Assembly: GCA_965237675.1 (NCBI GenBank)
Contig: OZ250150.1
Span: 3,232,001-3,296,000, forward strand
DNA from: Candidatus Latescibacterota bacterium
GTDB taxonomy: Bacteria; Latescibacterota; UBA2968; GCA-2709665
Direction: 5' to 3'
Length of the DNA stretch: 64,000 bases
Below, piece by piece: positions 18,438 through 41,293 of the stretch. Under the pieces are notes generated by a model. The model saw nothing but the letters and a program-made list of their open reading frames with translations, did no database searches and was not told where the DNA came from. Each line of letters starts with the position of its first letter. The stretch's first letter is position 1. A program made the position numbers and the translations under genes.

Positions 18438-20066
18438 CTACCTTGATTTCCACGGTTCTCCGGATGCCGTAACTTCCTTATGGATCGTGGCGTCGGGTCC
18501 GAAGCGGATGTGGCGGAAAGCGAAGGCGATGTGGCGGTTTCCAAATATGGCGTGGGTAAGCCCCCACTCGCCCAGCGTAAGGACGATGGTTGCGGTCAGC
18601 CCGATGACGAGTGTGTGCCCGATCCACGTGGCGTAGGTACCTGCGGACTGGACGAGGGGAAGATGCGTCGGGTCGGTATGTGCAATCGAAGCCGCCAGGA
18701 TGGTACAGATGACGGCGTTAAATGTAATAAGCCCCTCCGTGACGAGGCGTTGTGGACTGAATTCGACGATCTTCAGTGCAAAGTTAAAATTGACGACCCA
18801 CCAGAGAAAGACCAGGTAAAATAGCTGGCCCTTACCCAGCCATGTATACGGAATGAATGAGAGGGGTTGCGAGCGGTGTGCCTGCACCAACCAGAAAATC
18901 GCGACGCCGAAGGCAATGTAAATCAGTTCCAGCCAGCCGATCCACCCTCTGGACCGCACGAACCAGCCCGCTACCGGCAGACCGTAGAGTCGTTCCGGCA
19001 GCGATTCCACTCTCTCGACCCAATTCTCGGAGGCTTTTCTGTGGTTCAGATAGGTGAGTCCCACCAGAACAACCCCTGTCGCGAACATCGCTGACCACGG
19101 GGGCAAAGGGGTCGTATCTGAGCCGGCCGGCGCAAGGGTCGATAGCAGCCCCATGGAAATGGCGATAGCGATACCGTGAAACAGGCCCTGGGTCTGTTCC
19201 ATGATACTGTGCCAATTGGTCTGCAATCCGGTGCGGATGTTCAGCAATTTCAGCAACTGACCCAGGCCGAAGCCGATTCCTCCGATGAACCCCGTGATTA
19301 GCCCGGCCAGGGCAAGACCGTACAGGTCGTACCGCCAACAGTAGATCAACAGACCGGCGGTGAGGCCGACGCAACCCGCCCAGTTGTCGCCTCTGGGGGG
19401 TGTCATCCGGAGCTTGAGGACGGCGACAAGCACCAGAAACGACACGAACCACCCGATCGTAAGGTGAAGCACCAACGACGTGGCGATGTCAAAGCCTCCC
19501 CGGAAGGAGACGACGATTAACCCGGCGGCCATCGCCACCAGGTTCGCCAGCCAGTCGGTATCGTACCAGGAGAGAGCGGCTCTGCCGGATCTTCTGCCGT
19601 CCGAGAAGAGCAGGTCTACCAGAACCGACTGCAGCGCCCACCCCGAGAAGATCGTGGCCAACGGCGTGAAGAAAAGCGCAAGCCGATCTCCGGTGAGAAA
19701 TACCGGCAGTGCGGTTCCCGCGCCGCCCATAAAAGCCCAAAGGAAGCCAATCACGAAAAGGTTGCCGAATCCGTAGAGCACAGAGGGCGGGTGGCCAGAG
19801 TGCGTGTAGCCTACCACGCCCATGTATGACATGCTCCCGCCGAAAGACCATCCGAGCGCGCCGAACATGGCGAAATAGTGGACGTGCTGCATCCAGTCGG
19901 AACGGCCGGAGATCAGCACGGCCGCAATAGCCGCCAGTGCGCCAGGTATGGCCGCGCCGTACTCGTGGCCGAAATTGCCGCGGATGCCCCATCCCACCGA
20001 TAGAGACAGGCCGCAAAAGGCCACGAGTTGCCATGTAATGCCCGTTGTTGCCAGTTGCAGGTCCAT
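18438..20066 (-). CDS. Multi-pass membrane protein of unknown function
   Basis: 542 aa with many TM segments. GWGIRGNFGHEYGA, FGGSMSY, RGDNWAG, NWHSIMEQ motifs. Confidence 0.75.
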   Translation of the reverse strand: MDLQLATTGITWQLVAFCGLSLSVGWGIRGNFGHEYGAAIPGALAAIAAVLISGRSDWMQHVHYFAMFGALGWSFGGSMSYMGVVGYTHSGHPPSVLYGFGNLFVIGFLWAFMGGAGTALPVFLTGDRLALFFTPLATIFSGWALQSVLVDLLFSDGRRSGRAALSWYDTDWLANLVAMAAGLIVVSFRGGFDIATSLVLHLTIGWFVSFLVLVAVLKLRMTPPRGDNWAGCVGLTAGLLIYCWRYDLYGLALAGLITGFIGGIGFGLGQLLKLLNIRTGLQTNWHSIMEQTQGLFHGIAIAISMGLLSTLAPAGSDTTPLPPWSAMFATGVVLVGLTYLNHRKASENWVERVESLPERLYGLPVAGWFVRSRGWIGWLELIYIAFGVAIFWLVQAHRSQPLSFIPYTWLGKGQLFYLVFLWWVVNFNFALKIVEFSPQRLVTEGLITFNAVICTILAASIAHTDPTHLPLVQSAGTYATWIGHTLVIGLTATIVLTLGEWGLTHAIFGNRHIAFAFRHIRFGPDATIHKEVTASGEPWKSR

Positions 20067-20793
20067 ATTACGGCGGCCCTGGGCCGGTGTCGATAACGAG
20101 ATTGCCGTAGTCGTCTACGTTTACCGTACACCCTGGGGGAATGAACGTTGTGGAGTCGATTTCCTCGACAATGGCGGGGCCCGGGAAGCGGTTGTCCGCC
20201 TTCAGACGATACCGGTCATAAATCGCCGTGGCTGCCCTGGCCGCGGACCCGGGCATGTGGACGTCGCGTTCGGCCTTCAGGGCGGCGTGCGCGGATGGTT
20301 TGCCTTTGGGAGCCCGCCGGTGGCTGGGGCGGGGAACGGCTCCCACGGCGGAGAGGCGTACATTGACGATTTCCGTGGGCTCATCCCGGGTTGCAAAACC
20401 GTACTGGCGCCGGTGTGCGGCGAAAAAAGCGGCGTTTAATTTCTCGGGAAGATCCTTTGACAACCGCCCGACGGGTACTCGAAGTTCGTAGGATTGGCCC
20501 AAATACCGCATGTCCGCCTCCCGGACGAATCGGATATTGGAGCGGGAGACGCCCTCACTCAAAAGCAGGCGGGTCGCATTCTCTTCAAATTCGCGGTAGA
20601 TGCCCGAAAGGCCGGGCAGGTCCAGGTCGTCCGTCTTTGAAATGTAGGTACGTACGTAGTCGTGACGCAGGTCGGTAACGAGCAGACCGAGCGCCGTGGT
20701 AACGCCCGGGCTGGGCGGTACGAGTACGGTGCGGATATGCAGCGCCTTTGCGAGCGCGGCGGCGTGGAGGGGGCCGGCGCCGCCGAAAGCGAC
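19882..20793. repeat. Left ~0.9 kb direct repeat flanking the BREX island
   Basis: Near-identical to 40389-41293, with a few SNPs and one small indel. Confidence 0.95.
20068..20793 (-). pseudogene. Duplicated 3' fragment of the hydantoinase/oxoprolinase A gene
   Basis: Protein VAFGGAGPLH...IDTGPGPP matches the C-terminus of 40568-42673 except one residue (L vs T). Confidence 0.9.
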
Positions 20794-21906: not shown

Positions 21907-22651
21907 CGCCCTCCGCCGATCTTCCGCGCGGGCGCAAGCCCTCCATGGCAGCAGGCGCCGCTACTGCGTAGCAGCGGAGAGGTTCTAGGGAGCTTGCGGA
22001 GCGGCGTAACACGGGAGCGGAGGACGGGAATTTTCCGGATGCGGCCGGCGTGGATCCTCCAGCAGAGCGCCATTGCGCCCCATAGTTCGTCGGGTAACCC
22101 GTAGGGGCAAATCCGCACGGAAGAGGCCCGACGTTGAGTTCACGGACCCGAGCGGCAGTCGGTGCCGGAGGAACAGCTCCTCCAACACCTGTAGATGCGT
22201 TCGAACGACGAACCCATCGCGGTACGTGGCAGGCCCCTCGCTCTTAAGGCGTCCGGCATCCGCTCCGCGTAGCAGTGCAGCAATCCTCGCTGACCTCGGT
22301 GCCTCGCCGGGTCCCCAGTTATTCGGTCGACGACCTCGCCATCGCTTCCCATAGCGCCCCGGGGCGCGGGCACAGCATGTACCAGCGGATGATGGTGGCT
22401 TCATTAAATGGTACAACCGCCTTTGCTGTATGGACTTACATCATGAATTCGCCTCAAGACGGCGTCCGGATCATAAGCGACAATCAGGCCGTTTGTTGGA
22501 GATGTCGGCACTATTCGGCACAGAACGCTTGATTTTGGCAATTCGTCAATGTAATTTATAAAGGATAATTCGCGGCATTGTGTCCGGATTTCGGTTTTCC
22601 CGGAGACCTTCGGGCTTTTACAGAAAACATGATGAACGAAGGACGAAGGCT

Positions 22652-22888
22652 ATGGATGAGAGATGTCTGACAGTCGATGACATTTGCAAATATCTGAATG
22701 TAAGCAACGAGACGGTCTACAAGTGGATCGAACAACGGGCCATGCCCGGTCATCGCGTCGGCCGTCGCTGGATGTTCAAGCAAGATGACGTGGATGCATG
22801 GGTTTGCTCCGTGCGGCTGACAAATCCGATAAGCCGGACACCGAGCAGTAAGGAGCGACCATGGCCGAACCGATACACGACAAGATAA
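22652..22888 (+). CDS. Excisionase-like helix-turn-helix (HTH_17) protein
   Basis: LTVDDICKYLNVSNETVYKWIEQRAMPGHRVGRRWMFKQDDVDAWV, directly upstream of brxF. Confidence 0.85.
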   Translation: MDERCLTVDDICKYLNVSNETVYKWIEQRAMPGHRVGRRWMFKQDDVDAWVCSVRLTNPISRTPSSKERPWPNRYTTR

Positions 22889-23349
22889 AACGATCCCTGC
22901 AGTCAGCCGAAGGCCTGTATCACCGCTTAGTGTTGCTGGTGGGTGAGACCGGTACCGGTAAGACCGGCGTTCTTCGGGGTGTTGCCGAGGAGTTTGGGAC
23001 ATCCGTCATCAACGTCAATCTGGCGCTCTCAAGCGAACTGCTTGAGCTGACCGCGAACCAGCGGTCACTTCGGTTGCCGGGCATCCTCGATCAGATCGCG
23101 GACAAAGCACACCCACCGGTGGTGCTGGATAATCTTGAGATCCTTTTCGACAAGGACCTCAAGCAGGACCCCGTGCGGCTGCTGCAGGGCATTTCGAGAA
23201 ATCGGGCCGTAGTGGCTTCGTGGAACGGGACCTCTACCGGCGGGAGGCTCTTGTACGCTGAACCCGGCCACCCCGAGTACCGCAGCTTCGACTCTGTCGA
23301 TGCGCTGATCGTGGGCATGGATGGCACGGCCACGCTCGATTCGGCATAA
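22861..23349 (+). CDS. brxF: BREX-3 P-loop protein BrxF
   Basis: LVLLVGETGTGKT Walker A, VVLDNLEILFD..LKQDP, YAEPGHPEYR. First gene of the brxF-brxC-pglXI-brxHII-pglZ-brxA order. Confidence 0.9.
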   Translation: MAEPIHDKIKRSLQSAEGLYHRLVLLVGETGTGKTGVLRGVAEEFGTSVINVNLALSSELLELTANQRSLRLPGILDQIADKAHPPVVLDNLEILFDKDLKQDPVRLLQGISRNRAVVASWNGTSTGGRLLYAEPGHPEYRSFDSVDALIVGMDGTATLDSA

Positions 23350-23359
23350 CACATTATAG

Positions 23360-27106
<3,747 letters not shown>

Positions 27107-27108
27107 AA

Positions 27109-27164
27109 GTGACTAAGCGAGTGACCAACTCCACAGAGCTTGGTCACTCGTGAAGTGACCAAGC
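27109..27164. repeat. Four GTGACYAA motifs (three direct, one inverted) forming a hairpin between brxC and pglXI
   Basis: Copies at 27109, 27121 and 27155, inverted copy at 27138-27147. CGAGTGACCAA/TTGGTCACTCG is a perfect 11-bp stem. Confidence 0.7.
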
Positions 27165-28139
27165 TGAGACACAAGACACCAGCAAGGATTATGAAGATGA
27201 AAGAAAACAGTTTGTTCGACTCGCTGCTTGAAGAGCCGCAGAAGCCCTCCGGTCCGGTGAAATGCCTTGGCATGAACTTTGAAAACCACGAGGCCCGCCG
27301 CGCTCACTTCACTGAGGAACTGCGCAAGAAGTTACAGGACCCCGAGTTCCGCAAGATCGAAGGCTTTCCCATCGGTAGAGACGAGGACATCCTGGAACTG
27401 AGCGATCCGCCGTACTACACCGCCTGTCCGAACCCGTGGATCGCCGACTTCATCGCCGAGTGGGAGGCACAGAAGCCGGAACAGCCCGATGGCTACCCCT
27501 ATCACCGTGAGCCTTTTGCGGCCGATGTGAGCGAGGGCAAAAACGATCCAATTTACAAGGCGCATTCCTATCATACCAAGGTGCCCTATAAGGCCATCAT
27601 GCGTTACATCCTCCACTACACGCAGCCGGGAGATATAGTGTTTGACGGATTCTGTGGTACCGGTATGACGGGCGTGGCGGCGCAGATGTCCGGCGACCGC
27701 GAAGTGGTCATGTCGCTTGGCTACCAAGTGAAGTCGGACGGGACCATTTTGCAGGAAGAGACGGATGAAGATGGCAATAAGTTTTGGCGACCGTTTTCAA
27801 GACTGGGCGAACGCCGAGCGATTCTCAATGATCTATCCCCAGCAGCAACTTTTATCACGTACAACTATAACAGTCCAATCAATCCATCGTCCTTCGAACG
27901 CCAAACCAATCGAATTCTCAACGATGTCGAGAAAGAACTTGGTTGGATGTATGAAACAAGACACACCGACGGTTCGCTATGCAACGTAGATTATTTTGTC
28001 TGGAGCGAAGTTTTTACTTGCCCGTCTTGTGCGGCACAATTGGTTTTTTCCGAAATGGCACTCGAGGGTGATACAGGGCGAGTGCGGAAGGAACTGAAGT
28101 GCAAATCATGCAACAGCGAAATGCAAAAGAATGATTTAG

Positions 28140-29827
28140 CCTGAATAATTCACAAAAAAGGTAGTTTCCATACCCAAGTCATTGTATTATATTATGGTTA
28201 CGCAAATAACCTAATAACAATGAAACAGGAGGAAACTACCGTGGGAGTTCAAGATAAACATCACAGGTTGTCTTTCGCAAGTCTTTCTGGTAGGCAGGTA
28301 GAAGCCACGTTCGACGGGGGCGTGCTGACGACCGACGTCGGGGTGATGCTGCTTCGTGAGGTCGAGGCCAATGTCGGCATTTTGCATCGGATGGTTGCGG
28401 CGCTCACCGATCATCGACATCAAAGTTACGTACATCATTCGATGATGGACCTGATCAAACAACGTGTCTTTCAGATGGCCTGTGGGTATGAGGATGCGAA
28501 TGATTGCAAGACGTTACGCGAGGACCCCGGCTTCAAGGCGGCCTGTGATCGGTTGCCGTTGTCTGGCGCGGACCTGGCCAGTCAGCCCACGATGAGTCGG
28601 TTCGAGAACCGCATCAGCAGAACCGATTTGTATCGGATCGCCAAGGCCTTTGCGGATGTGTTTGTCGCCTCGTATGAGGAACCGCCGGAAGCCATTCTGT
28701 TGGACATCGATGACACCGAAGACAAGGTGCATGGGTCTCAACAGTTGTCGTTGTTCAATGCGTATTTCAATGGCTATTGCTACCAGCCCCTGCATATCTA
28801 TGAAGGCCAAACCGGCAAGTTGATCACGACGGTCTTGCGTCCTGGCAGGCGGCCTGCGGGTAAAGAGATCGTCACCATCCTCAAACGGGTGATCGCCTAC
28901 CTGCGTAAAGCCTGGCCCGACGTGGAGATCCTGTTACGTGGCGATGCGCATTTTTCGTGTCCGGAAGTGCACGTGTTGTGTGAGGAAGAAGATGTGTATT
29001 TTGTCCTCGGACAGAACGGCAACGCCAAACTCCTGCGGAAGGCACAGTCCTTGATAGACCAGGCCAAAACGCGGTATGCCGATTCCGGAGAAACCGTGCG
29101 CCTTTATCGCTGTTGGGCCTATCAGGCCGGCACCTGGGCGTGTCCACAACGCATCGTCTGCAAGGCGGAAGTGACACCGCAAGGTGTCAATATCCGATTC
29201 GTGGTCACCAACCTGAAGCGCGCCCAACCGTCATTCATCTACAAAACCGCCTATTGCACACGCGGCAGGATGGAAAACTTCATCAAAAATCACAAGACCT
29301 TTCTCCATTCCGATCGCACCTCTTGTCACACCTTCCAGGCCAATCACTTCCGTCTCTTTCTCCACAGCGCCGCCTATGTCCTGATGCACAGCCTGGCTGC
29401 AATCGGATTGCGCGGCACGAAGTGGACCAACGCACAGTTCAATACCCTGCAAAATCGTCTCTTGAAAGTCGCCGGGCGCGTTTGTGAGTTGAAAACTAAA
29501 ATCAAGTTCCATCTGCCAACGGCGTTTCCACTCAAACACCTTTATGGCAAGATCCTCTATAATCTGGCAACGGGTGTTCCATAACCCATCGACGTGCTGA
29601 CCCCGCCTTCACATTTGCATCGACCACCACCAAAGGTCATGGAGAAGTCTGTGCGCTTGACACGGGCATCGAGGTCAACCTGACGTCACGAGGCAAAGCA
29701 GGCGCCGCCCAAACGGCTTGAACACGCCAAATCCGTCACAGCCCATGCGCTTTCGTTTCTTGTCTCACTCGGAAGCTCTTTCTGCTTCCTTAAAATGCTC
29801 TATCTGACGATTCATGAATTAATCGGG
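28140..29827 (+). mobile_element. Complete IS1380-family insertion sequence (1688 bp)
   Basis: Terminal IRs CCTGAATAATTCA / TGAATTAATCGGG (11/13). TTAG target duplication at 28136-28139 and 29828-29831. Confidence 0.93.
28220..29584 (+). CDS. IS1380-family DDE transposase
   Basis: FDGGVLTTDVG, GYEDAND, LASQPTMSRFEN, LDIDDT..HGSQQ, RGDAHF, YCTRGRMENFIK. Confidence 0.95.
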   Translation: MKQEETTVGVQDKHHRLSFASLSGRQVEATFDGGVLTTDVGVMLLREVEANVGILHRMVAALTDHRHQSYVHHSMMDLIKQRVFQMACGYEDANDCKTLREDPGFKAACDRLPLSGADLASQPTMSRFENRISRTDLYRIAKAFADVFVASYEEPPEAILLDIDDTEDKVHGSQQLSLFNAYFNGYCYQPLHIYEGQTGKLITTVLRPGRRPAGKEIVTILKRVIAYLRKAWPDVEILLRGDAHFSCPEVHVLCEEEDVYFVLGQNGNAKLLRKAQSLIDQAKTRYADSGETVRLYRCWAYQAGTWACPQRIVCKAEVTPQGVNIRFVVTNLKRAQPSFIYKTAYCTRGRMENFIKNHKTFLHSDRTSCHTFQANHFRLFLHSAAYVLMHSLAAIGLRGTKWTNAQFNTLQNRLLKVAGRVCELKTKIKFHLPTAFPLKHLYGKILYNLATGVP

Positions 29828-31710
29828 TTAGAGATATCCTATGAAGAGAACTGGGATCCAATTCAGCGGATATCACACCAATCACCAAAGCGTGTTCCAT
29901 ACCTTATTGTTTATAGAAAGGACAAAGCTAAGCTATCAAAAAAGCCAGATGACCATGATTTGGAAGTGATTCGAAAGATTAGTGCTCTCCCGTACCCTGA
30001 GTTCCCGGTAGTAGAAATTCCCGATATGCAGATGATGCGAGTTGGACGAATGAAGCCGTCCAAAATTACCCATTTGCATCACTTTTTTTTAAAGCGCCCC
30101 TTGTTCACTCTCGCATCCTTTTGGAAGAAGGCTTCACAAATCCCCGATCCAGATCTTAGGGCAAAAGCCCTATTTTTTGTTGAGCAATCCGTTTGGGGGT
30201 TATCTGTGTTGGCAAGATATGCGCCAACCCATTTTTCACAAGTTAACCAGTATCTCTCAGGCGTTTTCTATATGGCCTCCCATATTGTCGACGTTTCTCC
30301 AAGGTACATTCTTGGGGGTAAGGCCAAAAGACTGGCTACCGTCTTTGGCAACCTCAGAGCCAAAAGACAGCATGTCGTAACAGCGACCCAGGATACGTCG
30401 AATCTAGGCGTGCCTGCAAACTCTCTGGATTACGCATTCATTGATCCCCCATTCGGGGAAAATATCTATTACTCAGATCTGAATATGTTAGTCGAATCCT
30501 TACATGGGGTGGTTACAGATCCCAAATCGGAGGCGATTATAGACCGGGTCAGGGGGAAGGAATTTGCTCACTACCAGCTGTTGATGACTGACTGTTTCCG
30601 AATGGTGTACGACTCATTGAAGCCGGGAAGATGGCTTACGGTTGAGTTTTCAAACTCCAATGCAAAAATTTGGAATTTGATCCAGACTAGTCTGGGTTCA
30701 GCAGGATTTGTAGTTTCGAACGTTTCTGCTCTGGACAAAAAGCAGAGGAGCTTTCAATCTATCGTTTCCCCGACGGCCGTAAAACAAGATTTGGTGATAT
30801 CTTCCTATAAGCCAAACGGCGGTTTCGAAGAGAGATTTAGAAACGAAGCAAAAACTGAAGAAGGCGTTTGGGATTTTGTCCGCAACCACTTGAGATATCT
30901 TCCTATCACGAAGCAACAGGGGGCCTCGCTGCAGTTTGTCCCGGAGCGTGATCCACGCATTCTATTCGACCAGATGGTGGCCTATTACGTCCACAAGGGT
31001 TACCTCGTGCCGATCTCCAGCCAGGAGTTCCAGATGGGGCTGGGGCAGCGCTTTATTGAGCGTGATGGCATGTATTTCTTGCCAGAACAATCGGCAGAAT
31101 ACGACAAGAAAAGGATGTCGTTTGGACAGTTTGTTCAAGCCACGCTCTTTGTTTCAGATGAAGAATCTTCTATTCAGTGGCTAAGCCAGTTGTTGGGACC
31201 AAAGCCACAGAGCTATCAAGATCTTTACCCGCAATTCATTCAAGAAACCCAACGTGCTTGGAACAAGAACGAATCTTCGCTAGAACTTTCGACTTTGCTC
31301 GAGCAAAACTTCCTTCGGTACGACGGCAAGGGCCCGGTGCCTGAGCAGATCCACGCCTACCTCTCCACGAACTGGAGGGAGCTGCGCCGGCTGCCGAAGG
31401 ATGATCCAACTCTGGTCGCCAAGGCCCGCGACCGCTGGTACGTGCCGGATCCCAACAAGGCGGGTGACCTGGAGAAGCTGCGTGAGAAGGCATTGCTCAA
31501 AGAGTTCGAGGAATACAAAGAAACAAAAAAGAGGCTGAAAGTCTTTCGTCTTGAGGCGGTCCGGGCCGGATTCAAGAAAGCCTGGCAGGAGCACGATTAT
31601 ACGGTCATCGTGGCAGTCGCGGACAAGATTCCCAACAACGTTCTGGAGGAAGATCCGAAGCTGCTCATGTGGTACGATCAGGCAGTAACAAGAACGGTTA
31701 GGGAAAGCCC

Positions 31711-33633
31711 ATGATTACCAAATGGAAAGTCTTTAACTTTAAGTCAATTCGGGAGGAAACCGAGCTTGATCTCGGGCCGCTTACGATTTTCGCTGGTGCG
31801 AACAGCAGCGGCAAGAGCACGTTTATTCAATCCGTCCTACTTGTTGCGCAAACATTGGCACATAAAGTCGGATCACGCTCTGTCGTATTGAATGGTGCTC
31901 TCACCAGTTTGGGCCAGTTTGATGACCTGAAATCCAACGGTGGCGAGTCAGACCAAATCACCATCAAATGCACATGTCGGCCGCTGACGGATCAGGAGGC
32001 TGCAATCCCACGGAGATCTCAATTCGCTCCCCGTGGTGCTATTTACTATGGACCGCGCTCCGATCAGCTTCAGGAAATCGCTTGCGAGATCTCTTTCGAT
32101 GCTGATCCATCAAGCTCCGAGCGTGATCTGTTTCAAATCCAACCTCGGCTTTTTGCCACCCAGTTGTCCTGCGTATCCAGAGACGAGGATAACGTTGATC
32201 AGAAAGCAGACATCTCTATTCACCACTCCACCAAGGCCATTTCCGAGATTGAGGGAGCTGATGTTGCGAGTGAAATCGACGATCAGCTACGTGCCGGTTT
32301 GGCCTATGCGGTTGAACTGGACGAGAATTTCATGACCGAGGTCAAGGAGGATTTTCGCTCGGCCAAGCCTATCGGCTGCATGCTGAGACACTTCCTTCCC
32401 GAGAGAATCATATACGCCATCGATACCATTGAAGAGGATGCGAACGCCATCACCGTGGCACTCCAGGGCGATAGCCGTCGCGGCATGGGCTTACGACGCA
32501 GTGTGGGAAGGGGGATTCTTCTTTCCGAAGAGATCATTGCGCTCTTGCGCGAAATCCTCGAAGGAATAATGGATTTCGACCAGGCCATCAAGGACAAGTA
32601 TCGGCAGGAGTCACTGTTTGGTTCCGAGTCTGAGACACTCACATTCAGGGAATGGTATGAAGGACTACGTGACCTTCCCCGCACCGAGCGCCTGAAGGTT
32701 CAGCAGGTACTGCGTGAGCGTGAGGACCTTTTTGACCGCATCCATGCAGCCATGAAGGCATCGACAGCTGAGAAGTCAGAAACCCATGACTTTGTCCAAG
32801 CTAGGCCACCTCGCTTAATAACGGAAGCCACCTTGTACCTGGACAATTTCTTCGCCTCGTCTTTGAAATATCTCGGTCCATTGAGAGATACTCCCAAGCC
32901 GCTGTACCCGCTCGCACCAGCCGCCGATCCACATGACGTAGGCCTGCGCGGTGAACACACGGCTTCGATTCTTGAATTGCACAAGAACAAGAAAATACGC
33001 TACATCCCATCGGAAAATTTCAGAGATCCGGGAATTAATCGGAAGACGGTAACCCGAACGCTCGAAGCAGCGGTTACCGATTGGCTCCAATATCTTGGTG
33101 TGGCCAGCTCAGTAAAAAGCCGGGACCAGGGTAAACTGGGACATGAACTGAAGGTAGGCCTGTCCAACTCGGACAGCACACACGACCTTACGCACGTGGG
33201 TGTAGGCGTCAGTCAGGTGTTACCGATCCTCCTTGTGTGCCTTCTGGCGGACACGGACTCTACACTCGTCTTTGAGCAGCCGGAGCTGCATTTGCACCCC
33301 AGGGTTCAGACCCTGCTGGGGGATTTCTTTCTTTCGATAGCGTTATGCAACAAGCAGTGCGTTGTTGAGACCCACAGCGAATACTTTATCGATCGCCTTC
33401 GTTTCCGAATTGCCGCGGCATCACCTGAGAACGAGTTGAACAGTCAGGCCAAGATCTACTTCGTGGAAAAGTCATCACGGGCTTCATCTTTCCGAGAGGT
33501 GGTGATTAACGAGTATGGGGCGATTTCAGACTGGCCGGATGGGTTCTTTGACCAGTCCCAACAGCAGGCTGAGGAAATCCTAAGAGCGGCGGCGATGAAA
33601 CGGAAAGCGGGCCGGAGAAATAAAGATGCATAG
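31711..33633 (+). CDS. ABC/AAA_21-type ATPase with C-terminal DUF3696-like domain
   Basis: NFKS, LTIFAGANSSGKSTFIQ, YLGPLR, VGVGVSQVLP, FEQPELHLHP, ETHSEY, WPDGFFDQ. ATGA overlap with the pglXI stop. Confidence 0.88.
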   Translation: MITKWKVFNFKSIREETELDLGPLTIFAGANSSGKSTFIQSVLLVAQTLAHKVGSRSVVLNGALTSLGQFDDLKSNGGESDQITIKCTCRPLTDQEAAIPRRSQFAPRGAIYYGPRSDQLQEIACEISFDADPSSSERDLFQIQPRLFATQLSCVSRDEDNVDQKADISIHHSTKAISEIEGADVASEIDDQLRAGLAYAVELDENFMTEVKEDFRSAKPIGCMLRHFLPERIIYAIDTIEEDANAITVALQGDSRRGMGLRRSVGRGILLSEEIIALLREILEGIMDFDQAIKDKYRQESLFGSESETLTFREWYEGLRDLPRTERLKVQQVLREREDLFDRIHAAMKASTAEKSETHDFVQARPPRLITEATLYLDNFFASSLKYLGPLRDTPKPLYPLAPAADPHDVGLRGEHTASILELHKNKKIRYIPSENFRDPGINRKTVTRTLEAAVTDWLQYLGVASSVKSRDQGKLGHELKVGLSNSDSTHDLTHVGVGVSQVLPILLVCLLADTDSTLVFEQPELHLHPRVQTLLGDFFLSIALCNKQCVVETHSEYFIDRLRFRIAAASPENELNSQAKIYFVEKSSRASSFREVVINEYGAISDWPDGFFDQSQQQAEEILRAAAMKRKAGRRNKDA

Positions 33634-34675
33634 CCTACCCAGCGTAACAATTGACGCGGGCGTGCTCGCCGTTCCCCATGTTGATTGCGCTAAGGATGAT
33701 GCATTCCAGTATGTGGAGACGTTATTGGATTGGAGCAAGTTGCTTGATGAGCCGTGGGTCGCCATTTACATGAGCGAGCGGGCTTCCGAGTCTCTTTTTG
33801 CCGATGGATTGTATCCACTGAGGGAGCAACTGAGAGAACTATTCAATGCCCACGGCATAGTGGAATTCGATGTAAATACGGTCGCTAGGATTGCCAATCA
33901 GCTTCTGGTGATCACTCCATCCTTTGAAACCTACTATCGGACCAAGGACATCTTGTCAGAGCATCTTGAAACAGATCCGGATGTTATCCGGCTTACAACT
34001 CATGACGGTCTCCAATCTGATCTTGCCCGATGTATAACGTTGATCGCTGTCCTGCGTAAACACTGCTCTCAACCTCTTGGCGGCCATTCACTCATTCTGA
34101 GAGATGCGCCCAAACAGGTGATCCAAGTAAGAGCCCAGATCCACGAGTTCGAACATACCAGAGACGATATTCCGCCCTTGCCGTCCCCGCCAGAGTACTT
34201 TGAAGGCGATGTGCTGGCCTGTGACGATTTTCGTGGGCTGATCGAATGTCTCGATGAGTCGGCAATACTATCCGGTGCGTCTGACAACCTTGGAATTGCA
34301 CTCGCCGTCCGAATTGGCCTGTTCAAGGACGCCATTGCGCAAGGCGATGCCCCTGACTGGGGAGGAGTGATTGTTCCAACCATAGGGTCCAGATTCCGGG
34401 AGTTGTGCCAGCAGGTTTGTGCTGACCAAGGGGCCTCTGTGCCGCCCAAGGTTCTCCGATCAATCGTAGAGACTATCAAAGGACGCAATCTTCCGGCGGT
34501 ACACGCTCTGCGAACAGGGCCGGGAGGGAATGATCCGCAAAGGACGAGAGGCCCCGATAAGGCAGAGCGTCGCGATATCGATAAAGAATTTCATCTTCAC
34601 TACTGGAAATGCGCCGACGGGATTGTCGAGTTGGCGTCAGTGGTTTATCACAACGATTTTACAATTCCGGGATGA
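33626..34675 (+). CDS. Uncharacterised protein, putative effector partner of the ATPase
   Basis: 349 aa, overlaps the ATPase by 8 nt and brxHII by 4 nt. C-terminal RRDIDKEFHLHYWK...VELASVVYH suggests a RelE-like fold. Confidence 0.75.
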   Translation: MHSLPSVTIDAGVLAVPHVDCAKDDAFQYVETLLDWSKLLDEPWVAIYMSERASESLFADGLYPLREQLRELFNAHGIVEFDVNTVARIANQLLVITPSFETYYRTKDILSEHLETDPDVIRLTTHDGLQSDLARCITLIAVLRKHCSQPLGGHSLILRDAPKQVIQVRAQIHEFEHTRDDIPPLPSPPEYFEGDVLACDDFRGLIECLDESAILSGASDNLGIALAVRIGLFKDAIAQGDAPDWGGVIVPTIGSRFRELCQQVCADQGASVPPKVLRSIVETIKGRNLPAVHALRTGPGGNDPQRTRGPDKAERRDIDKEFHLHYWKCADGIVELASVVYHNDFTIPG

Positions 34676-37566
34676 TGCCGATGCAGGATGTTTGGCAATA
34701 CAGCACCGTTCATAACAGCGCCTGCAAGGTCATCGAGGAACGGACCTTGTGGGGGCAGACGGTGTGCCGTGTCTGGTTGCCGAACCAGGATACGGTGGTG
34801 CGCCTGCCCCGCTCCGCCTTGCGGCCGCTGAATGTCGACTTACAGCCGGAGATCGAGACCGGACGCATTGCCTATGTGGCCGCCGCAGCCAAGGTGGCCG
34901 AGGTGCTCGAGGGTTCTACCAGCGCCACTGACGGCCATGTCCTGCTGGCCCCCATGGAGTCGAATGTTATTCCGCTGCCGCACCAGATCCACGCCTTGTC
35001 CCGGGCTATCTCCGGTGACCGCGTGCGCTATCTGCTGGCCGACGAGGTGGGTCTCGGTAAGACCATCGAGGCCGGTCTGATCATGCGCGAACTCAAGCTG
35101 CGCGGGCTGGTGCGCCGAACGCTAGTCGTCTCTCCCAAAGGTATCGCCACCCAGTGGGTAGCGGAAATGCAGACCCACTTCAACGAGCAGTTCCAGCTCG
35201 TTCTGGGCGACGACATCAGCACACTGCAACGCATGGCTCCAGGAGTGGACCACCGGAGCTCTGCCTGGTCGAAGTTCGATCAGGTCATCGTCTCGCTGGA
35301 TTCGGTCAAACCCATGGATAAGCGGCGCGGCTGGACCGCCGAGCGCGTTGCCGAATACAACCGCAGTCGGTTCGAGGATCTGATTACCGCCGGTTGGGAT
35401 CTGGTGGTGGTGGACGAAGCGCACCGTCTGGCCGGAAGCACCGATCAGGTCGCCCGCTACAAACTAGGCAAAGGGCTGGCGGAGGCCGCGCCCTATGTAC
35501 TGCTCCTTTCGGCCACGCCCCACCAGGGCAAGACCGATGCCTTCCACCGCTTGATGAACCTGCTGGATGACGACGCCTTTCCTGATATGGACAGCGTCTC
35601 CCTCGACCGGATAGCTCCGTATGTCATCCGCACCGAGAAGCGCAAGGCCATTGATGCCGACGGCAACCCGCTCTTCAAACCCCGGCGCACGCAGATGGCC
35701 CCGGTCGCCTGGGAGAGTCGTCACCACTTGCAACAGCTCCTCTATGAGGCGGTGACCGACTATGTACGGGAGGGTTACAACCAGGCCCTGCGGGAGAAGA
35801 AGCGCCACATCGGGTTTTTGATGATTCTGATGCAGCGCCTGGTGGTCTCGAGTACCTGGGCGATCCGCACCACCCTGGAACGGCGGCTCGCCGCACTCAA
35901 GGATGGTGAACAGCAAGCCAGCCTTCGCCTGGCGGAGCTTGAGAACGGCGAGGCTGGCTCGGAGAATCTCGATGAGTTGTACGACATGGATGGGCAGGAG
36001 CTGCTCGATGAGTTGCTGAAATCCCATGTGTCGGCTCTGCAGAGCGAAGGCAGCCACGTGGAGACCCTGCTGCATGCGGCGGTACGTTGCGAACATGCGG
36101 GACCGGACGCCAAGGCCGAGGCGCTGATGGAGTGGGTATTTCAACTTCAGGCCGAGGAAAACGAGCCGGATCTGATGGTTTTGATCTTCACCGAGTTCGT
36201 GCCGACCCAGGAGATGCTGAAGGAGTTTCTCGAAGCCCGGGGCATTTCGGTTGCCACCCTGAACGGCTCCATGGATATGGAGGAACGCAAGCAGGCCCAC
36301 GATGCCTTCCGCACGTCGCACCGCGTGCTGGTTTCCACGGACGCGGGCGGTGAAGGTTTGAACCTTCAGTTCGCCCACGTCATCATCAACTACGACATCC
36401 CCTGGAACCCGATGCGGCTGGAACAGCGGATCGGCCGCGTGGACCGTATCGGCCAGCCCAAGACGGTAAGGGCCATCAATTTTGTCTTTGAGGATTCGGT
36501 CGAGTTCCGGGTCCGCGAAGTGCTGGAGCAGAAGCTCTCGGTGATCTTCGACGAGTTCGGCATCGACAAGACTGGTGACGTGCTTGACTCTGCCCAGGCC
36601 GGTGAGTTGTTCGAGGATATGTTCGCCTCGGCGATCCTCAATCCCGATGGTATCGAGACCTCCGTTGACTATACGGTGGCTCGGATTCGGGATGAAATCC
36701 AACAGGTGCGAGAGTCCTCGGCCATCTACGGCATCTCAGAAGAACCCGATGTGCAAACCGCTGAACGCCTGCGCTCGCATCCACTGCCCCACTGGGTGGA
36801 ACGGATGACGGTGGGTTACCTCAATTCCCATGGCGGCGTGGCCAACCGCACGCGCTCTTGGTGGGATCTGAATTGGCCGGACGGCCAGGAACACCGCAAA
36901 TGCGTATTCAGCGCCCGAGAAGCGGATCGTCTGACCGACGCCACGCTGCTCAATCTTGAGAATAGTCGAGTACGTGGGCTCGCCCTGAACCTGCCACAGG
37001 TAGTGGCCGGTCAGCCTTTGCCTTGCGTAACCGTAAGCGGGCTGCCCGCAAGCATCTCCGGGTTCTGGGGGCTGTTCGAGATTCGTCTCCAGGCCGGGAT
37101 GCACCAGAAGACGCAACTCCTCCGCATTTCCAGTGTTCGGCGTGGCTATGTCAGTGTGTTCTTGAGCGAGGAAGGCAAACTGTTTCTGCCCACCGCCAGG
37201 CATATCTGGGATGCGTTGCAGACACCGGAATCCCAGGTGCAAGGCAATCTCGGGCAGGATGAATCCTTTGCCGCCCATGCGCGTTTACAGGAAGCGGCCG
37301 AACAGGCAGGACAGGGGCTGTTCGACGCCCTGCAGCAGGCGCACCTTGCCTCTGTGGTGCGTGAAGAGGAACGCGGAATCGTTTCCTTTGCCTCGCGCCG
37401 TAAGGCCATTGAACGGGTTGGCCTGCCGGAGGTGCGGCAATTCAGGTTGTCCCGTTGCGACGCAGACGAGTGCGAATGGCGACATGAACTGCAATCGGCG
37501 CGGCAGATCGTGCCGGACATCCGGCCGCTTCTGATGCTGCGCATTATCAAGGGACGCACTCAATGA
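34672..37566 (+). CDS. brxHII: BREX-3 SNF2-family helicase BrxHII
   Basis: LLADEVGLGKT, VVVDEAH, LSATPHQG, STDAGGEGLNLQ, PWNPMRLEQRIGRVDRIGQ. Upstream of pglZ. Confidence 0.9.
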   Translation: MMPMQDVWQYSTVHNSACKVIEERTLWGQTVCRVWLPNQDTVVRLPRSALRPLNVDLQPEIETGRIAYVAAAAKVAEVLEGSTSATDGHVLLAPMESNVIPLPHQIHALSRAISGDRVRYLLADEVGLGKTIEAGLIMRELKLRGLVRRTLVVSPKGIATQWVAEMQTHFNEQFQLVLGDDISTLQRMAPGVDHRSSAWSKFDQVIVSLDSVKPMDKRRGWTAERVAEYNRSRFEDLITAGWDLVVVDEAHRLAGSTDQVARYKLGKGLAEAAPYVLLLSATPHQGKTDAFHRLMNLLDDDAFPDMDSVSLDRIAPYVIRTEKRKAIDADGNPLFKPRRTQMAPVAWESRHHLQQLLYEAVTDYVREGYNQALREKKRHIGFLMILMQRLVVSSTWAIRTTLERRLAALKDGEQQASLRLAELENGEAGSENLDELYDMDGQELLDELLKSHVSALQSEGSHVETLLHAAVRCEHAGPDAKAEALMEWVFQLQAEENEPDLMVLIFTEFVPTQEMLKEFLEARGISVATLNGSMDMEERKQAHDAFRTSHRVLVSTDAGGEGLNLQFAHVIINYDIPWNPMRLEQRIGRVDRIGQPKTVRAINFVFEDSVEFRVREVLEQKLSVIFDEFGIDKTGDVLDSAQAGELFEDMFASAILNPDGIETSVDYTVARIRDEIQQVRESSAIYGISEEPDVQTAERLRSHPLPHWVERMTVGYLNSHGGVANRTRSWWDLNWPDGQEHRKCVFSAREADRLTDATLLNLENSRVRGLALNLPQVVAGQPLPCVTVSGLPASISGFWGLFEIRLQAGMHQKTQLLRISSVRRGYVSVFLSEEGKLFLPTARHIWDALQTPESQVQGNLGQDESFAAHARLQEAAEQAGQGLFDALQQAHLASVVREEERGIVSFASRRKAIERVGLPEVRQFRLSRCDADECEWRHELQSARQIVPDIRPLLMLRIIKGRTQ

Positions 37567-39557
37567 GTAGTTGGCGAGACGCCATCCTGACCGACTTTGT
37601 ACCCAACGTCAGCAAGCTGACCTTGGTCGCGGACTCGGACAGTCTGCTGACCGAGGAAAAGCTGGCGTTGGAGCTTCGCGCGCGCGGGTTCGACCTGATC
37701 GAGTTCAATGACCCGGTCGAATTCAGATACGCCTATGAGTCCAAGTACCGCTCAATCTGGGACCTGGGCGAGCACACCGATCTGGTGGTGATCCTCCGCT
37801 TGCAGGATGCCGAGCTGATATCCTTGCCTTACGACCTACTCCAGGCAGGTCGGAAGCTTTCGTTCAATCTTGGAGATCTCTTTCCCAACCTGAGCTATCC
37901 GGTCATTGAGGAACTCGACCGGAGCCTGCTCGACGCGCTCTTTGAGGCCCAGCGCAAGTCGGCTCTGGATCGTATGGGCGACAACGCCACCAAGGATTAC
38001 ATTCTCCGCCATGTGTTCGGCATCGCCCCAGAACTGATTGCCAACGAGGTGGAGCTGCTTCGCGCTTTGCTTCGCATGCATTATGGGAAACTTCAGATCC
38101 CGCTGATGCTGGCCGAGCGGCTCATACAGGTTCTCAGAAGCCATGACGGGTTCAAGACCTGGCCGCTTTCTGAAATCGTTCCGGACGACGAGGCATTCTT
38201 CGCCTTTTTGCAGGAACGCTGGCCGCTATTTCTGTCCAGGCTTGGCGGTGCCAATCAGATACGGGAAGACTCGCGGGAATATGGCCTCAAGTATCCCGGC
38301 CCCGATCATCTGCCGTTCGACCATCAGGACATAAAGATCTACATCGACAACCTGTTCCTGGAGGGCAGACTCACGCCTGTCGAGGCCACAGATATTGAAG
38401 TGGATGCCCGGTCTTGGGTTCGATGCGGCATTGCCATGGCCGGTGTATATGACCAAGATCTTCGTGTTTCCCGCCTGTTTGGCCTTGTCGAGGAGGAGCT
38501 GCCCACACCTGAAGCGCGGTACGCTGACTGGACCTCCTTTGCGCTGAAATGGGCCGAGCTTTCTTCGCTGGTGCATTGCGGCAACAGTACCGAATATCAG
38601 ACTCGGCTCAGGGAAATCGGTGATGCCCTGAATACGATCTTTGCCGGATGGTTGGCCGACCACTATTCCAGTCTGATCAACCTGCCGCCGACACATCCGG
38701 CTATGGTGCACCATGTACTGCGTCGCCTCGCTCGGGACATTGACGACTCCGGTAGCAGCCGTGCCGCGCTGATCGTGGTCGATGGCCTTGCTCTGGACCA
38801 GTGGGTGACCATCCGCCAGCTTTTGCAACAGCAGGATGTCAATCTGGTCATGCGCGAATCCGCGACGTTCGCCTGGATTCCGACGCTGACCTCGGTATCG
38901 AGACAATCGATCTTCTCGGGCAAGCCACCGCTCTATTTCCCGTCAACCATCAACTCGACCAATAGCGAAGAGAAACTTTGGAAGCAGTTTTGGGAAGGCC
39001 ATGGCTTGTCGCGGCTGGATGTCGCTTACCAGCGAGGCCTCGGTGACGGCGATGCATCCAGCGTACTCGACTCCGTAATTCATCCCGACAAGACCAAGGT
39101 GGTGGGGCTGGTCGTGGACAAGGTCGACAAGATAATGCACGGCATGCAACTCGGCTCGGCCGGGATGCACAACCAGATCAAGCAGTGGTGCCGGAGTGGG
39201 TTCCTTGCTGCGCTGGTCGGCCAACTGCTGGATTACAGGTATGAGGTCTGGCTGACGGCCGATCATGGCAACATTCAATGCGACGGCAAAGGTCGCCCAT
39301 CTGAGGGTGTGATTGCCGAGATACGCGGCGAGCGGGTTCGTGTGTACCCCACGACGGAACTCCGGTCCCAGGTCGCTGGGTCCTTCCCGTTTGCCCACGA
39401 GTGGCAGCCGGTCGGGTTGCCAGCGGACTATTTCCCCCTGGTGGCCAGTGGCCGCGACGCATTCGTAAATCCTGGAGAGGCCATCGTAGGTCACGGCGGT
39501 GTAGCCATCGAAGAAGTCATCGTGCCCCTTGTGAAGTTTGAAAGGACGACACGGTGA
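37563..39557 (+). CDS. pglZ: BREX-3 phosphatase-domain protein PglZ
   Basis: LIVVDGLALDQW, FAWIPTLTSVSRQSIF, LTADHGN, HGGVAIEEVIVP. Confidence 0.93.
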   Translation: MSSWRDAILTDFVPNVSKLTLVADSDSLLTEEKLALELRARGFDLIEFNDPVEFRYAYESKYRSIWDLGEHTDLVVILRLQDAELISLPYDLLQAGRKLSFNLGDLFPNLSYPVIEELDRSLLDALFEAQRKSALDRMGDNATKDYILRHVFGIAPELIANEVELLRALLRMHYGKLQIPLMLAERLIQVLRSHDGFKTWPLSEIVPDDEAFFAFLQERWPLFLSRLGGANQIREDSREYGLKYPGPDHLPFDHQDIKIYIDNLFLEGRLTPVEATDIEVDARSWVRCGIAMAGVYDQDLRVSRLFGLVEEELPTPEARYADWTSFALKWAELSSLVHCGNSTEYQTRLREIGDALNTIFAGWLADHYSSLINLPPTHPAMVHHVLRRLARDIDDSGSSRAALIVVDGLALDQWVTIRQLLQQQDVNLVMRESATFAWIPTLTSVSRQSIFSGKPPLYFPSTINSTNSEEKLWKQFWEGHGLSRLDVAYQRGLGDGDASSVLDSVIHPDKTKVVGLVVDKVDKIMHGMQLGSAGMHNQIKQWCRSGFLAALVGQLLDYRYEVWLTADHGNIQCDGKGRPSEGVIAEIRGERVRVYPTTELRSQVAGSFPFAHEWQPVGLPADYFPLVASGRDAFVNPGEAIVGHGGVAIEEVIVPLVKFERTTR

Positions 39558-40312
39558 TGGGCAAAAGACACGAAGCTATCGGCATCAAGCAGGCGATCCG
39601 TTTTGAGTGGGTGCAGAAAGCAGCTAATCTGCTGCTGGCTGGACTTGACGCAAAAACCATCCGCCAGGAGCTACATGAGTTTCTCGCTGACAGAAAAGGC
39701 AATGGCGCCGAGGGTGAACGAAGCGACCAGACTCGAACCTTTGTCGTCAACAATCTGATGAAGATCTGGGTGTCTCCAGACCCAGAGTTGATTCCCTTCC
39801 GGGAGGCCTCACTGGCGTTTTTGCGGGAGCACCCGTCGATGGCCCGGGCCGTTCACTGGGGAATGATCTCGGCGGTCTATCCGTTCTGGTTCAATGTGGC
39901 CCGGCAAACTGGCCGTTTGTTGGCCTTGCAGGATCAGGTGACCCAGACGCAGATCATCAACCGCCTTAAGGAACAGTATGGCGACCGGCAGACCGTGAGC
40001 CGCTATGCACGGTACGTTGTCCGCTCCTTTGTTGCTTGCGGAGCCCTGAAGGATTCGAAGGCCAAGGGTTGCTATGAGAAAGCCGCTCCGTTACGCATTG
40101 CCGATGCAAACCTGGCGATCCTGATGTTCGAGTCCGCACTCTTGGCCACTCCGGAGGCCAGAGGAGCATTGGGGCTGCTCCTGAAGAATCCGGCATTCTT
40201 CCCATTCCAGCTTCCTGTAATGACTGGCGACTTTGTATCCCAACGTAGCGACCGGATCGACGTGGTTCGCTATGGGCTGGACGACGAGCTGTTGAAGTTG
40301 AAGGGCAACTAA
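39554..40312 (+). CDS. brxA: BREX-3 BrxA-like protein
   Basis: Last, translationally coupled gene of the BREX-3 order. VHWGMISAVYPF, GRLLALQD, YGDR motifs. Confidence 0.7.
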   Translation: MMGKRHEAIGIKQAIRFEWVQKAANLLLAGLDAKTIRQELHEFLADRKGNGAEGERSDQTRTFVVNNLMKIWVSPDPELIPFREASLAFLREHPSMARAVHWGMISAVYPFWFNVARQTGRLLALQDQVTQTQIINRLKEQYGDRQTVSRYARYVVRSFVACGALKDSKAKGCYEKAAPLRIADANLAILMFESALLATPEARGALGLLLKNPAFFPFQLPVMTGDFVSQRSDRIDVVRYGLDDELLKLKGN

Positions 40313-40388
40313 GGGGGACAGAATGGCTCTAATGAAAACAGAAACTAGTTTTGTTTCAATGAGTTACAGGTGTTCAGCGTAATCCTTC

Positions 40389-40566
40389 ACGTGCTGCATC
40401 CAGTCGGAACGGCCGGAGATCAGCACGGCCGCAATAGCCGCCAGTGCGCCAGGTATGGCCGCGCCGTATTCGGTCTGCCGCGGATGCCCCATCCCACCGA
40501 TAGAGACAGGCCGCAAAGGGCCACGAGTTGCCATGTAATGCCCGTTGTTGCCAGTTGCAGGTCCAT
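40389..40566 (-). pseudogene. Truncated, frameshifted 5' copy of the membrane protein gene at 18438-20066
   Basis: Same start sequence, net 7-bp loss near 40478-40485, homology ends at 40389. Confidence 0.85.
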
Positions 40567-41293
40567 ATTACGGCGGCCCTGGGCCGGTGTCGATAACGAG
40601 ATTGCCGTAGTCGTCTACGTTTACCGTACACCCTGGGGGAATGAACGTTGTGGAGTCGATTTCCTCGACAATGGCGGGGCCCGGGAAGCGGTTGTCCGCC
40701 TTCAGACGATACCGGTCATAAATCGCCGTGGCTGCCCTGGCCGCGGACCCGGGCATGTGGACGTCGCGTTCGGCCTTCAGGGCGGCGTGCGCGGATGGTT
40801 TGCCTTTGGGAGCCCGCCGGTGGCTGGGGCGGGGAACGGCTCCCACGGCGGAGAGGCGTACATTGACGATTTCCGTGGGCTCATCCCGGGTTGCGAAACC
40901 GTACTGGCGCCGGTGTGCGGCGAAAAAAGCGGCGTTTAATTTCTCGGGAAGATCCTTTGACAACCGCCCGACGGGTACTCGAAGTTCGTAGGATTGGCCC
41001 GTATACCGCATGTCCGCCTCCCGGACGAATCGGATATTGGAGCGGGAGACACCCTCACTCAAAAGCAGGCGGGTCGCATTCTCTTCGAATTCGCGGTAGA
41101 TGCCCGAAAGGCCGGGCAGGTCCAGGTCGTCCGTTTTTGAAATGTAGGTACGTACGTAGTCGTGACGCAGGTCGGTAACGAGCAGACCGAGCGCCGTGGT
41201 AACGCCCGGGCTGGGCGGTACGAGTACTGTGCGGATATGCAGCGCCTTTGCGAGCGCGGCGGCGTGGAGGGGGCCGGCGCCGCCGAAAGCGAC
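40389..41293. repeat. Right ~0.9 kb direct repeat flanking the BREX island
   Basis: Copy of 19882-20793. Confidence 0.95.

Follow-up and report, generated by a model that had tools for sequence, protein, structure and literature searches.

Several described defence systems come close to the gene pair analysed here. In Menshen, dissected by Li et al. (NAR 2025, PMC12065111), NsnB combines an ABC ATPase with DUF3696, and NsnC joins a PIN-like domain, described as inactive, to a BECR RNase. The published NsnC families are hardly alike in sequence; the fold scores reported for NsnC were Z 8.5 for YafQ, the best match, and Z 5.8 for PIN. The operon appears as ptuXYZ, and NsnC as 'PtuZ', in Gerdes (mBio 2025, PMC11980606). 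HEC-03 is a two-gene system of an ABC ATPase and a PIN protein, which is embedded in Hma and requires both genes for defence in E. coli (Payne et al., bioRxiv 10.1101/2024.01.29.577857). OLD-ABC ATPases that accompany PIN endoRNases within bacteriophage exclusion (BREX) loci were termed a 'backup effector layer' (NAR 2026, PMC12839542). Here we describe a 640-aa ATPase (P0001) and a 349-aa partner protein (P0002) encoded in a type 3 BREX locus of a Candidatus Latescibacterota bacterium. The stretch of DNA analysed, referred to as the window, comprises 64,000 nucleotides (contig OZ250150.1, positions 3,232,001 to 3,296,000). Since the Menshen survey was seeded on DUF262, sensor-less pairs such as this one lay beyond its reach.

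The domain families, folds, conserved motifs, linkage and distribution of the two genes belong to a class that is already known. They mark a sensor-less form of Menshen/HEC-03 in which the ATPase bears a long insert and the effector comes from an uncatalogued family. The pair is not a new system. We consider it fairly probable that it is a defence cassette of Menshen/HEC-03 type, self-contained and horizontally mobile but lacking NsnA, in which the ATPase controls an RNase and which acts probably by abortive infection, carried as cargo in a slot of the BREX-3 locus.

The ATPase and its partner

The pair is placed between pglXI and brxHII, within the plus-strand gene run of the BREX locus, and the genes are tightly packed. 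The stop codon of pglXI and the start of the ATPase gene share 4 nt, the ATPase and partner genes share 8 nt, and the TGA of the partner gene (34673-34675) shares one base with an in-frame ATG at 34675. The longest brxHII open reading frame (ORF) begins at 34609, inside the partner gene. Because relatives align only from the ATG at 34675, this codon is likely to be the start of brxHII, and not the 34609 given by the ORF finder.

Pfam assigns the ATPase to AAA_15 (5e-24) and AAA_21 (3e-17). It is the sole DUF3696 protein of the genome, with a DUF3696 match (6e-12) of 46 bits against a curated cut-off of 22, and thus combines the ABC ATPase and the DUF3696 tail that characterize NsnB. Among the PADLOC models it matched NsnB (8.6e-75), HEC-03B (4.2e-52, residues 384-634), PDC-M55A (3e-42) and AriA (3e-27). 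In an alignment of 23 homologues G29, N31, S32, S33, G34, K35 and S36 of Walker A are invariant, and the signature-like VGVSQ (497-502), the Walker B motif LVFEQPE (519-525) and the H-loop ETHSE (553-557) are invariant or nearly so. The AlphaFold model (pLDDT 78.5) resembles the ABC heads of SMC (Z 19.6), Rad50 (19.1), the retron Ec83 ATPase (15.4), OLD (14.8), PtuA (14.6), GajA (14.1) and PARIS AriA (13.4).

The 345-position NsnB model covers just the N-terminus of the ATPase and residues 359-625. As the model skips the stretch between them, about 290 residues (76-365) are regarded as an insert; canonical NsnB ORFs that stand beside canonical NsnC genes in the same phylum have 371-430 aa. The insert had no Pfam match at E<=10 and was modelled as beta-strands plus helices. 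Its mean pairwise identity is 40%, as compared with 69-79% for the head and tail of the ATPase, and it is a candidate sensor region.

The partner, searched whole and as two halves, had no match in Pfam or PADLOC at E<=10 or in NCBIfam at E<=1. Its relatives number 612 in 90%-identity clusters (346-363 aa among the matches listed) and 626 among 50%-identity cluster representatives, so the genes of the pair are not chance ORFs. Every named member of the family is annotated 'hypothetical protein'. In the window both ORFs are intact, and the nearest relatives are 98-99% identical. The nearest clusters in Protein Atlas are unnamed and of about 290-340 aa; one has YoeB_toxin in 15% of its members, which serves as a lead only. 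A profile search of solved-structure sequences with the 71-sequence alignment of the family (A1) returned just chance dynein matches with E about 1.

The AlphaFold model of the partner, built on A1, has a pLDDT of 95 and a pTM of 0.90. It was compared with known structures by VIA-align, against 48,161 chains, and by Foldseek. The C-terminal domain (residues 248-346) matches E. coli YafQ (4q2u_B) with Z 9.0 and a root-mean-square deviation of 2.5, 85 of 90 residues being aligned. Seventeen further members of the RelE/YoeB/ParE/HigB families match at Z 5.7-8.3, among them the H. pylori HP0892-type toxin (8.3), YoeB (8.2) and PrpT (8.2). Foldseek gave a probability of 0.97-0.99, though with E only about 0.05. 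The N-terminal domain (residues 2-209) matches the PIN proteins Nmd4 (Z 5.6), Utp24 (5.2), VapC20 (5.2) and many VapC proteins (4.4-4.9); these scores are modest yet consistent. By fold, the partner has the arrangement of NsnC, a PIN-like N-terminal domain and a C-terminal effector domain encoded directly downstream of the ATPase.

Conservation among the 71 homologues differs between the two domains. In the C-terminal domain H293, R296, R315 (100%), D319, H325, Y326, W327 (100%), E335 and H342 are 90-100% conserved. By their conservation, H293, R315, H325, E335 and H342 (92-100%) are candidate RNase residues. The PIN-like domain has no fully conserved acidic quartet, position 10 (D10) being acidic in 86% and position 101 (E101) in 93% of the homologues. 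Mean pairwise identity is 23% in the PIN-like domain and 48% in the RNase core; both the PIN-like domain and the ATPase insert are more variable than the ATPase head (71-79%) and the RNase core. An open frame of about 80 codons in another genome (L084, G074:C36:1611-1817) matches solely the C-terminal RelE-fold part (profile positions 284-345, E 3e-11), and represents a small toxin standing alone or else a fragment.

No DUF262 gene was found in the window. The four DUF262 genes of the genome lie at 1.0, 2.5, 4.2 and 5.5 Mb, which is 0.7-2.3 Mb away from the window at 3.23-3.30 Mb. Much of an earlier sequence-only reading of the locus stands. It had described a two-gene ATPase and effector module nested in type 3 BREX outside the six-gene core, as the coordinates and PADLOC matches confirm, and had noted the overlaps within the pair and with the flanking brx genes, the AAA_21 ATPase with a DUF3696-like tail and a long insert, the lack of a recognized family and the RelE-like C-terminus of the partner, and the lack of a DUF262 gene. 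The N-terminal strand-Asp element that it had pointed out (VTIDAGVL) also found its place, VTID forming strand 1 of the predicted PIN-like fold.

In the published AlphaFold 3 models of NsnB4-NsnC2, paired DUF3696 tails clamp the PIN-like domain (PMC12065111). By analogy with these models and with the solved PARIS and Septu complexes, the binding, trigger, RNA target and anti-phage effect of the pair may be pictured as follows. An ATPase oligomer would keep the effector inactive by way of the DUF3696 tail and the PIN-like domain. A cue from infection would be received by the ATPase, probably at the variable insert, which would take the place of NsnA. Binding or hydrolysis of ATP would free or activate the RNase domain, which would cut RNA, most likely mRNA or tRNA, and the resulting stop of translation would lead to abortive infection. 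That members of the RelE family cut mRNA on the ribosome is established (PMC11980606). The cassette itself would be cargo of a variable slot between pglXI and brxHII/pglZ, co-transcribed with the brx genes.

Distribution of the pair and its place in type 3 BREX

Relatives were sampled by the partner: 33 loci from species genomes were found with a single-protein query, and 80 metagenome contigs with a 16-sequence sub-alignment of distant members. The partner family spans at least 12 bacterial phyla and one archaeon. The genome loci come from Lentisphaerota, Pseudomonadota, Myxococcota, Bacillota, Verrucomicrobiota, Thermodesulfobacteriota, Rhodothermota, Armatimonadota, Acidobacteriota, Actinomycetota, Chloroflexota and Dadabacteria, plus a Syntrophoarchaeum. 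The 349-aa protein had no homologue in 72,556 plasmid records or 50,697 phage records. Where upstream DNA was present, the ATPase gene adjoins the partner gene in all 31 genome loci and in 73 of the 75 metagenome loci (104/106), the two exceptions, L085 and L136, being C-terminal fragments.

BREX-3 genes flank the pair in 31 of the 33 genome loci and 49 of the 80 metagenome loci (about 80/113), a share that is biased because most loci were chosen by the pair itself. Of the 31 metagenome loci that lack BREX genes, just four extend for 3 kb or more on both sides. The gene order of the window is the commonest among relatives; in Chloroflexota-type loci (L030, L032, L033, L129 and L130) the pair is found between brxC and pglXI.

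Some pairs have no BREX genes around them. In L083 the pair follows haem-synthesis genes and precedes a small PIN-domain ORF and a heparinase-like gene, and in L086 the pair is located between an oxidoreductase gene and a glutamate synthase gene; in these two loci it is free-standing among housekeeping genes. The pair of L109 is near an integrase gene, that of L114 adjoins a type I restriction-modification (RM) system, and L031 is likewise devoid of BREX. In L017 a 27-aa remnant of BrxHII and then McrBC come after the pair, and in L023 a truncated brxC and a 47-aa remnant of PglXI come before it. Since these remnants flank an intact pair, the pair persists whole while BREX decays. Altogether, brxHII remnants of 27-138 codons stand beside intact pairs, and deletion scars were seen in L009, L011, L016, L025, L017 and L023.

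In one metagenome contig (L106:5985-11014) the pair, a 664-aa NsnB-like gene and a gene for a 348-aa homologue of the partner, lies downstream of an NsnA-like DUF262 gene (PADLOC NsnA 1.3e-24) and a 173-aa ORF. Among the related non-BREX loci examined, this is the only case seen of the partner family in a full Menshen arrangement.

A fairer estimate of the frequency of the pair in type 3 BREX was obtained from loci picked by PglZ, independently of the pair. Type-3 PglZ is encoded in 16 of 168 genomes of the window's phylum. Of 17 type-3 loci of the phylum (the window and 16 fetched), four carry the pair: the window, L068, L069 and L071, the last three of which lack BrxHII. Among 401 genomes of another class, eight have type-3 PglZ including the seed, and none of the other seven contains a homologue of the partner (positive control 3/3). 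As these unbiased samples are mostly without the pair, we rejected the notion that it is an integral core gene of BREX.

The interval from pglXI to pglZ appears as an exchange slot, which in different loci contains this pair, a PARIS-like pair, a STAND-Mrr protein, a Schlafen protein or an orphan of about 500 aa. In L178 the BrxC, BrxHII, PglZ and BrxA proteins are 89-94% identical to those of the window, and the slot is filled by a 509-aa orphan; in L179 and L180 brxHII directly follows pglXI. The orphan, which has no Pfam match, is found between pglXI and brxHII in L178 (9477-11006) and L177 (9585-11084). The two copies are 75% identical, their BREX backbones differ far more, and the protein is another uncharacterized embedded candidate. 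Other occupants are a PARIS-like ATPase with an AriB-like partner (L075:9981-11948), Mrr_cat-STAND NTPases (L063, 8947-11745, and L073), a 922-aa ABC ATPase with a Schlafen protein (L061:7978-11995; the ORFs of L066 are alike by size alone) and a DEAD helicase (L062). A Schlafen/AlbA_2-HATPase_c_4-Fic_C protein of about 610-630 aa is encoded between brxC and pglXI in several loci (L062:4657-6507).

Several points weigh against a cassette of the Menshen kind carried as mere cargo. The partner had no match to the PADLOC NsnC models at E<=10, and hhalign of A1 with nine canonical NsnC proteins gave a probability of 1.6%; with no sequence similarity to canonical NsnC, its assignment to NsnC is one of architecture only. 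ParE-type members of the RelE/ParE fold are not RNases and poison gyrase, which makes the RNA target of the C-terminal domain uncertain. The PIN-like domains of the NsnC type are called inactive in PMC12065111 and PMC11980606, a view disputed by a 2026 preprint (10.64898/2026.08.28.747851), and D10 and E101 are well conserved here. The proposed contact between ATPase and effector is modelled on published AlphaFold 3 predictions for other proteins, the NsnB and NsnC of Menshen. The insertion sequence (IS) element in pglXI, upstream of the pair, may alter expression of the pair in this genome. Finally, the divergence of the pair tracks that of the BREX core, with Spearman coefficients of 0.89 for BrxC, 0.83 for BrxHII, 0.89 for PglZ and 0.86 for BrxA (n 37-43) and a lower one of 0.63 for PglXI; these were taken among related loci and overstate independence. 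Pair-bearing loci also occur in all three large clades of a PglZ tree (quick IQ-TREE, 53 rows, biased sample), in which the nine pair-less loci of the window's phylum form one clade beside a pair-bearing locus. The co-divergence and the spread over clades speak more for a long-standing functional partnership with BREX than for casual carriage.

These last observations are what would be expected if the pair were functionally integrated in a type 3 BREX subtype, with BrxC, PglXI or PglZ replacing NsnA, a reading that we hold to be unlikely. The ATPase would then read the state of BREX and fire the RNase upon BREX inhibition, or the pair would be a restriction output able to replace BrxHII. The high proportion of type 3 BREX loci in the partner-based sample, the fixed position and the translational coupling agree with it, as does the frequent lack of BrxHII beside the pair: pglZ directly follows the pair in 13 loci and in L068, L069 and L071, brxHII deletion remnants are seen in L009, L011, L016 and L025, and BrxHII must have been lost at least five times on the PglZ tree. 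There is no settled account of how BREX stops phage, and type 3 is, to our knowledge, the least studied BREX type. The role proposed in the sequence-only reading, a guard of BREX against Ocr-like inhibitors, is plausible by analogy. The more specific proposal, that the 290-aa insert stands in for NsnA by reading BrxC, PglXI or PglZ, or their inhibition by phage proteins, is likewise held to be unlikely. If the pair were wired into BREX-3 in this manner, it would provide an RNase-based second line of defence for a large BREX-3 lineage and would explain both the co-divergence with the BREX core across phyla and the repeated loss of BrxHII beside the pair.

What speaks against integration is the behaviour of the pair where the sampling was not driven by the pair itself (4/17 and 0/7), its occurrence without any BREX gene in the long-flank loci L031, L083, L086, L109, L114 and L106, and its survival next to decayed BREX. 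Near-identical backbones carry other cargo in the slot (L178 and L075), and L159 is one clear case of cassette exchange, in which the pair has 83-85% identity as compared with 56% for BrxHII and 51% for PglZ. The correlations among related loci are not independent. We therefore read the association of the pair with BREX as old and stable, yet dispensable and exchangeable.

A toxin-antitoxin style addiction module, in which a RelE-like toxin neutralized by the ATPase would stabilize the BREX island without sensing phage, would agree with the RelE/YafQ fold, the tight gene overlap, the persistence of the pair as its neighbours decay, and its place on an island bracketed by 912-bp repeats. We consider it improbable. 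There is no small, labile antitoxin gene beside the partner, whose neighbours are the 640-aa ATPase gene and brxHII; all catalytic motifs of the ATPase are invariant, and it belongs to families (NsnB, HEC-03) with tested defence members. The plasmid and phage records searched contain no copy of the partner.

Insertion sequence, composition and borders of the island

The features of the locus are listed in Table 1. The IS element cuts pglXI inside its target-recognition insert, and its ends have imperfect terminal inverted repeats flanked by the target duplication. In relatives, an uninterrupted pglXI reads as one ORF of about 914-960 aa. The genome carries 14 identical 1688-bp copies of the element plus several diverged ones, so the insertion is recent. 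As the element splits pglXI, the BREX methyltransferase of this strain is broken, and became so recently.

Table 1. Features of the type 3 BREX locus in window coordinates
Feature	Position	Strand	Evidence
brxF	22861-23349	+	PADLOC BrxF 1e-62
brxC	23375-27106	+	PADLOC BrxC E=0
pglXI 5' part	27140..28139	+	PADLOC PglXI 8e-147, model positions 1-298
IS element in pglXI	28140..29827	+	Pfam DDE_Tnp_1_4 1.7e-156; 1688 bp; 4-bp duplication TTAG
pglXI 3' part	29828..31714	+	PADLOC PglXI 2.5e-263, model positions 299-916
NsnB-like ABC ATPase P0001, 640 aa	31711..33633	+	Pfam, PADLOC and predicted fold
Walker A / P-loop, residues 29-37 GANSSGKST	31795..31821	+	Alignment of 23 homologues
ATPase-head insert, ~290 aa, residues 76-365, candidate sensor region	31936..32805	+	Skipped by NsnB model
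DUF3696 C-terminal tail, residues 578-622	33442..33576	+	Pfam PF12476 6.2e-12, 46 bits
NsnC-like effector P0002, 349 aa	33626..34675	+	Fold of AlphaFold model; no family match
PIN-like N-terminal domain, residues ~2-209	33629..34252	+	VIA-align
RelE/YafQ-fold (BECR) C-terminal domain, residues ~248-346	34367..34663	+	VIA-align, Foldseek
brxHII, pglZ, brxA	34675..40312	+	PADLOC BrxHII E=0, PglZ E=0, BrxA 4e-119
pglZ	37563-39557	+	PADLOC PglZ E=0
brxA	39554-40312	+	PADLOC BrxA 4e-119

A promoter and terminator scan of 22500-40600 gave counts that were not above those of shuffled sequences (5 vs 8.3 and 17 vs 17.4). The least probable reading sees the pair of this genome as an inert passenger that has ceased to be expressed or used, the IS element having broken the BREX operon just upstream. 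It could appeal to the absence of promoter-like signals above chance between the element and the pair (5 sites vs 8.3 expected), but it is opposed by two intact ORFs with 98-99% identity to their nearest relatives and by the recent date of the insertion, and it concerns the present state of this strain alone, not the identity of the module.

The middle of the locus differs in composition from the rest. In pglXI and the pair (27140-34675) the G+C content is 48-52% (53-62% at third codon positions, GC3), as opposed to 56-61% (GC3 68-80%) in brxF, brxC, brxHII, pglZ and brxA; this middle part is probably of a different source. The BREX island of about 19.6 kb is bracketed by a 912-bp direct repeat, 98% identical, at 19882-20793 and 40389-41293. 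The repeat spans the 3' portion of a gene for hydantoinase A plus about 180 bp past it, and the left copy is a gene fragment joined to a DUF772 transposase-like stretch. The arrangement looks like the scar of an insertion or duplication of the island. Elsewhere in the genome, beyond the window, a further type-3 PglZ match (G000:C1:4559911-4560279), which is partial (model positions 1-123) and has one in-frame TAA, is probably the remnant of another BREX-3 locus.

Comparison with known systems

The sequence-only reading had called the pair uncharacterized and a candidate new anti-phage system. This went too far: the ATPase belongs to the NsnB family, the partner has the published architecture of NsnC, and in one relative the pair stands behind an NsnA gene. 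HEC-03 has been tested, and ABC ATPases with PIN proteins in BREX are already in print (PMC12839542). In the PADLOC search that it had put forward as a check, the partner had no match and the ATPase matched NsnB and HEC-03B. In the literature searched we found no account of this particular partner family, nor any of its association with type 3 BREX. As the class is already known, the gain is incremental. It consists of a widespread effector family without an entry in Pfam, PADLOC-DB v2 or NCBIfam, and of the indication, from gene content, that the ATPase-effector core of Menshen can be a unit without the DUF262 sensor, in which case sensing would be a task of the ATPase with its variable insert. 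Being small and intact, the pair lends itself to direct testing.

With the RelE/YafQ/YoeB type II toxins the pair shares the fold of the C-terminal 100 aa (Z 7-9) and a conserved set of His, Arg and Glu residues. Here, however, the domain is fused behind a PIN-like region of 245 aa, and the neighbouring gene encodes an ATPase instead of a small antitoxin.

PARIS resembles the pair in having an ABC ATPase that holds a nuclease until it is triggered; the AriA models match the ATPase weakly (3e-27; structure Z 13.4), and a PARIS-like pair occupies the same slot, between pglXI and pglZ, in L075. The partner differs from AriB, as it is not a TOPRIM/DUF4435 protein, matches no AriB model and has PIN-like and BECR folds instead. 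The pair was rejected as a PARIS system, its partner having no TOPRIM domain.

The OLD-ABC modules embedded in BREX represent the same general class, an ABC ATPase with a PIN endoRNase inside a BREX locus, whereas the passages of PMC12839542 that deal with them single out neither this pair nor its RelE-fold domain, its link to NsnB and NsnC or its tie to type 3.

HEC-03 is closer. It too has two genes, for an ABC ATPase and a PIN-domain protein, is lodged in another defence system and has no DUF262 sensor, and the PADLOC HEC-03B model matches our ATPase. Its host system is Hma and its partner a VapC-like PIN protein, whereas the partner described here matches no HEC-03 model and bears an extra RelE-fold domain, and the host is BREX type 3.

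The comparison with Menshen reveals several differences. The partner has no sequence similarity to the PADLOC NsnC models or to nine canonical NsnC proteins. The gene for NsnA (ParB-DUF262 and ParBDB) is absent here and in nearly all relatives, the upstream gene in the window being pglXI, and the ATPases have about 600-690 aa with the 290-aa insert, as opposed to about 345-430 aa in NsnB. In other respects the two agree: downstream of the gene for a DUF3696-tailed ABC ATPase, and overlapping it, lies one for a PIN-like and BECR (YafQ/YoeB-like) protein, the fold scores of the partner are close to the published NsnC values, the genes often adjoin BREX or RM systems, and in L106 the pair is accompanied by NsnA.

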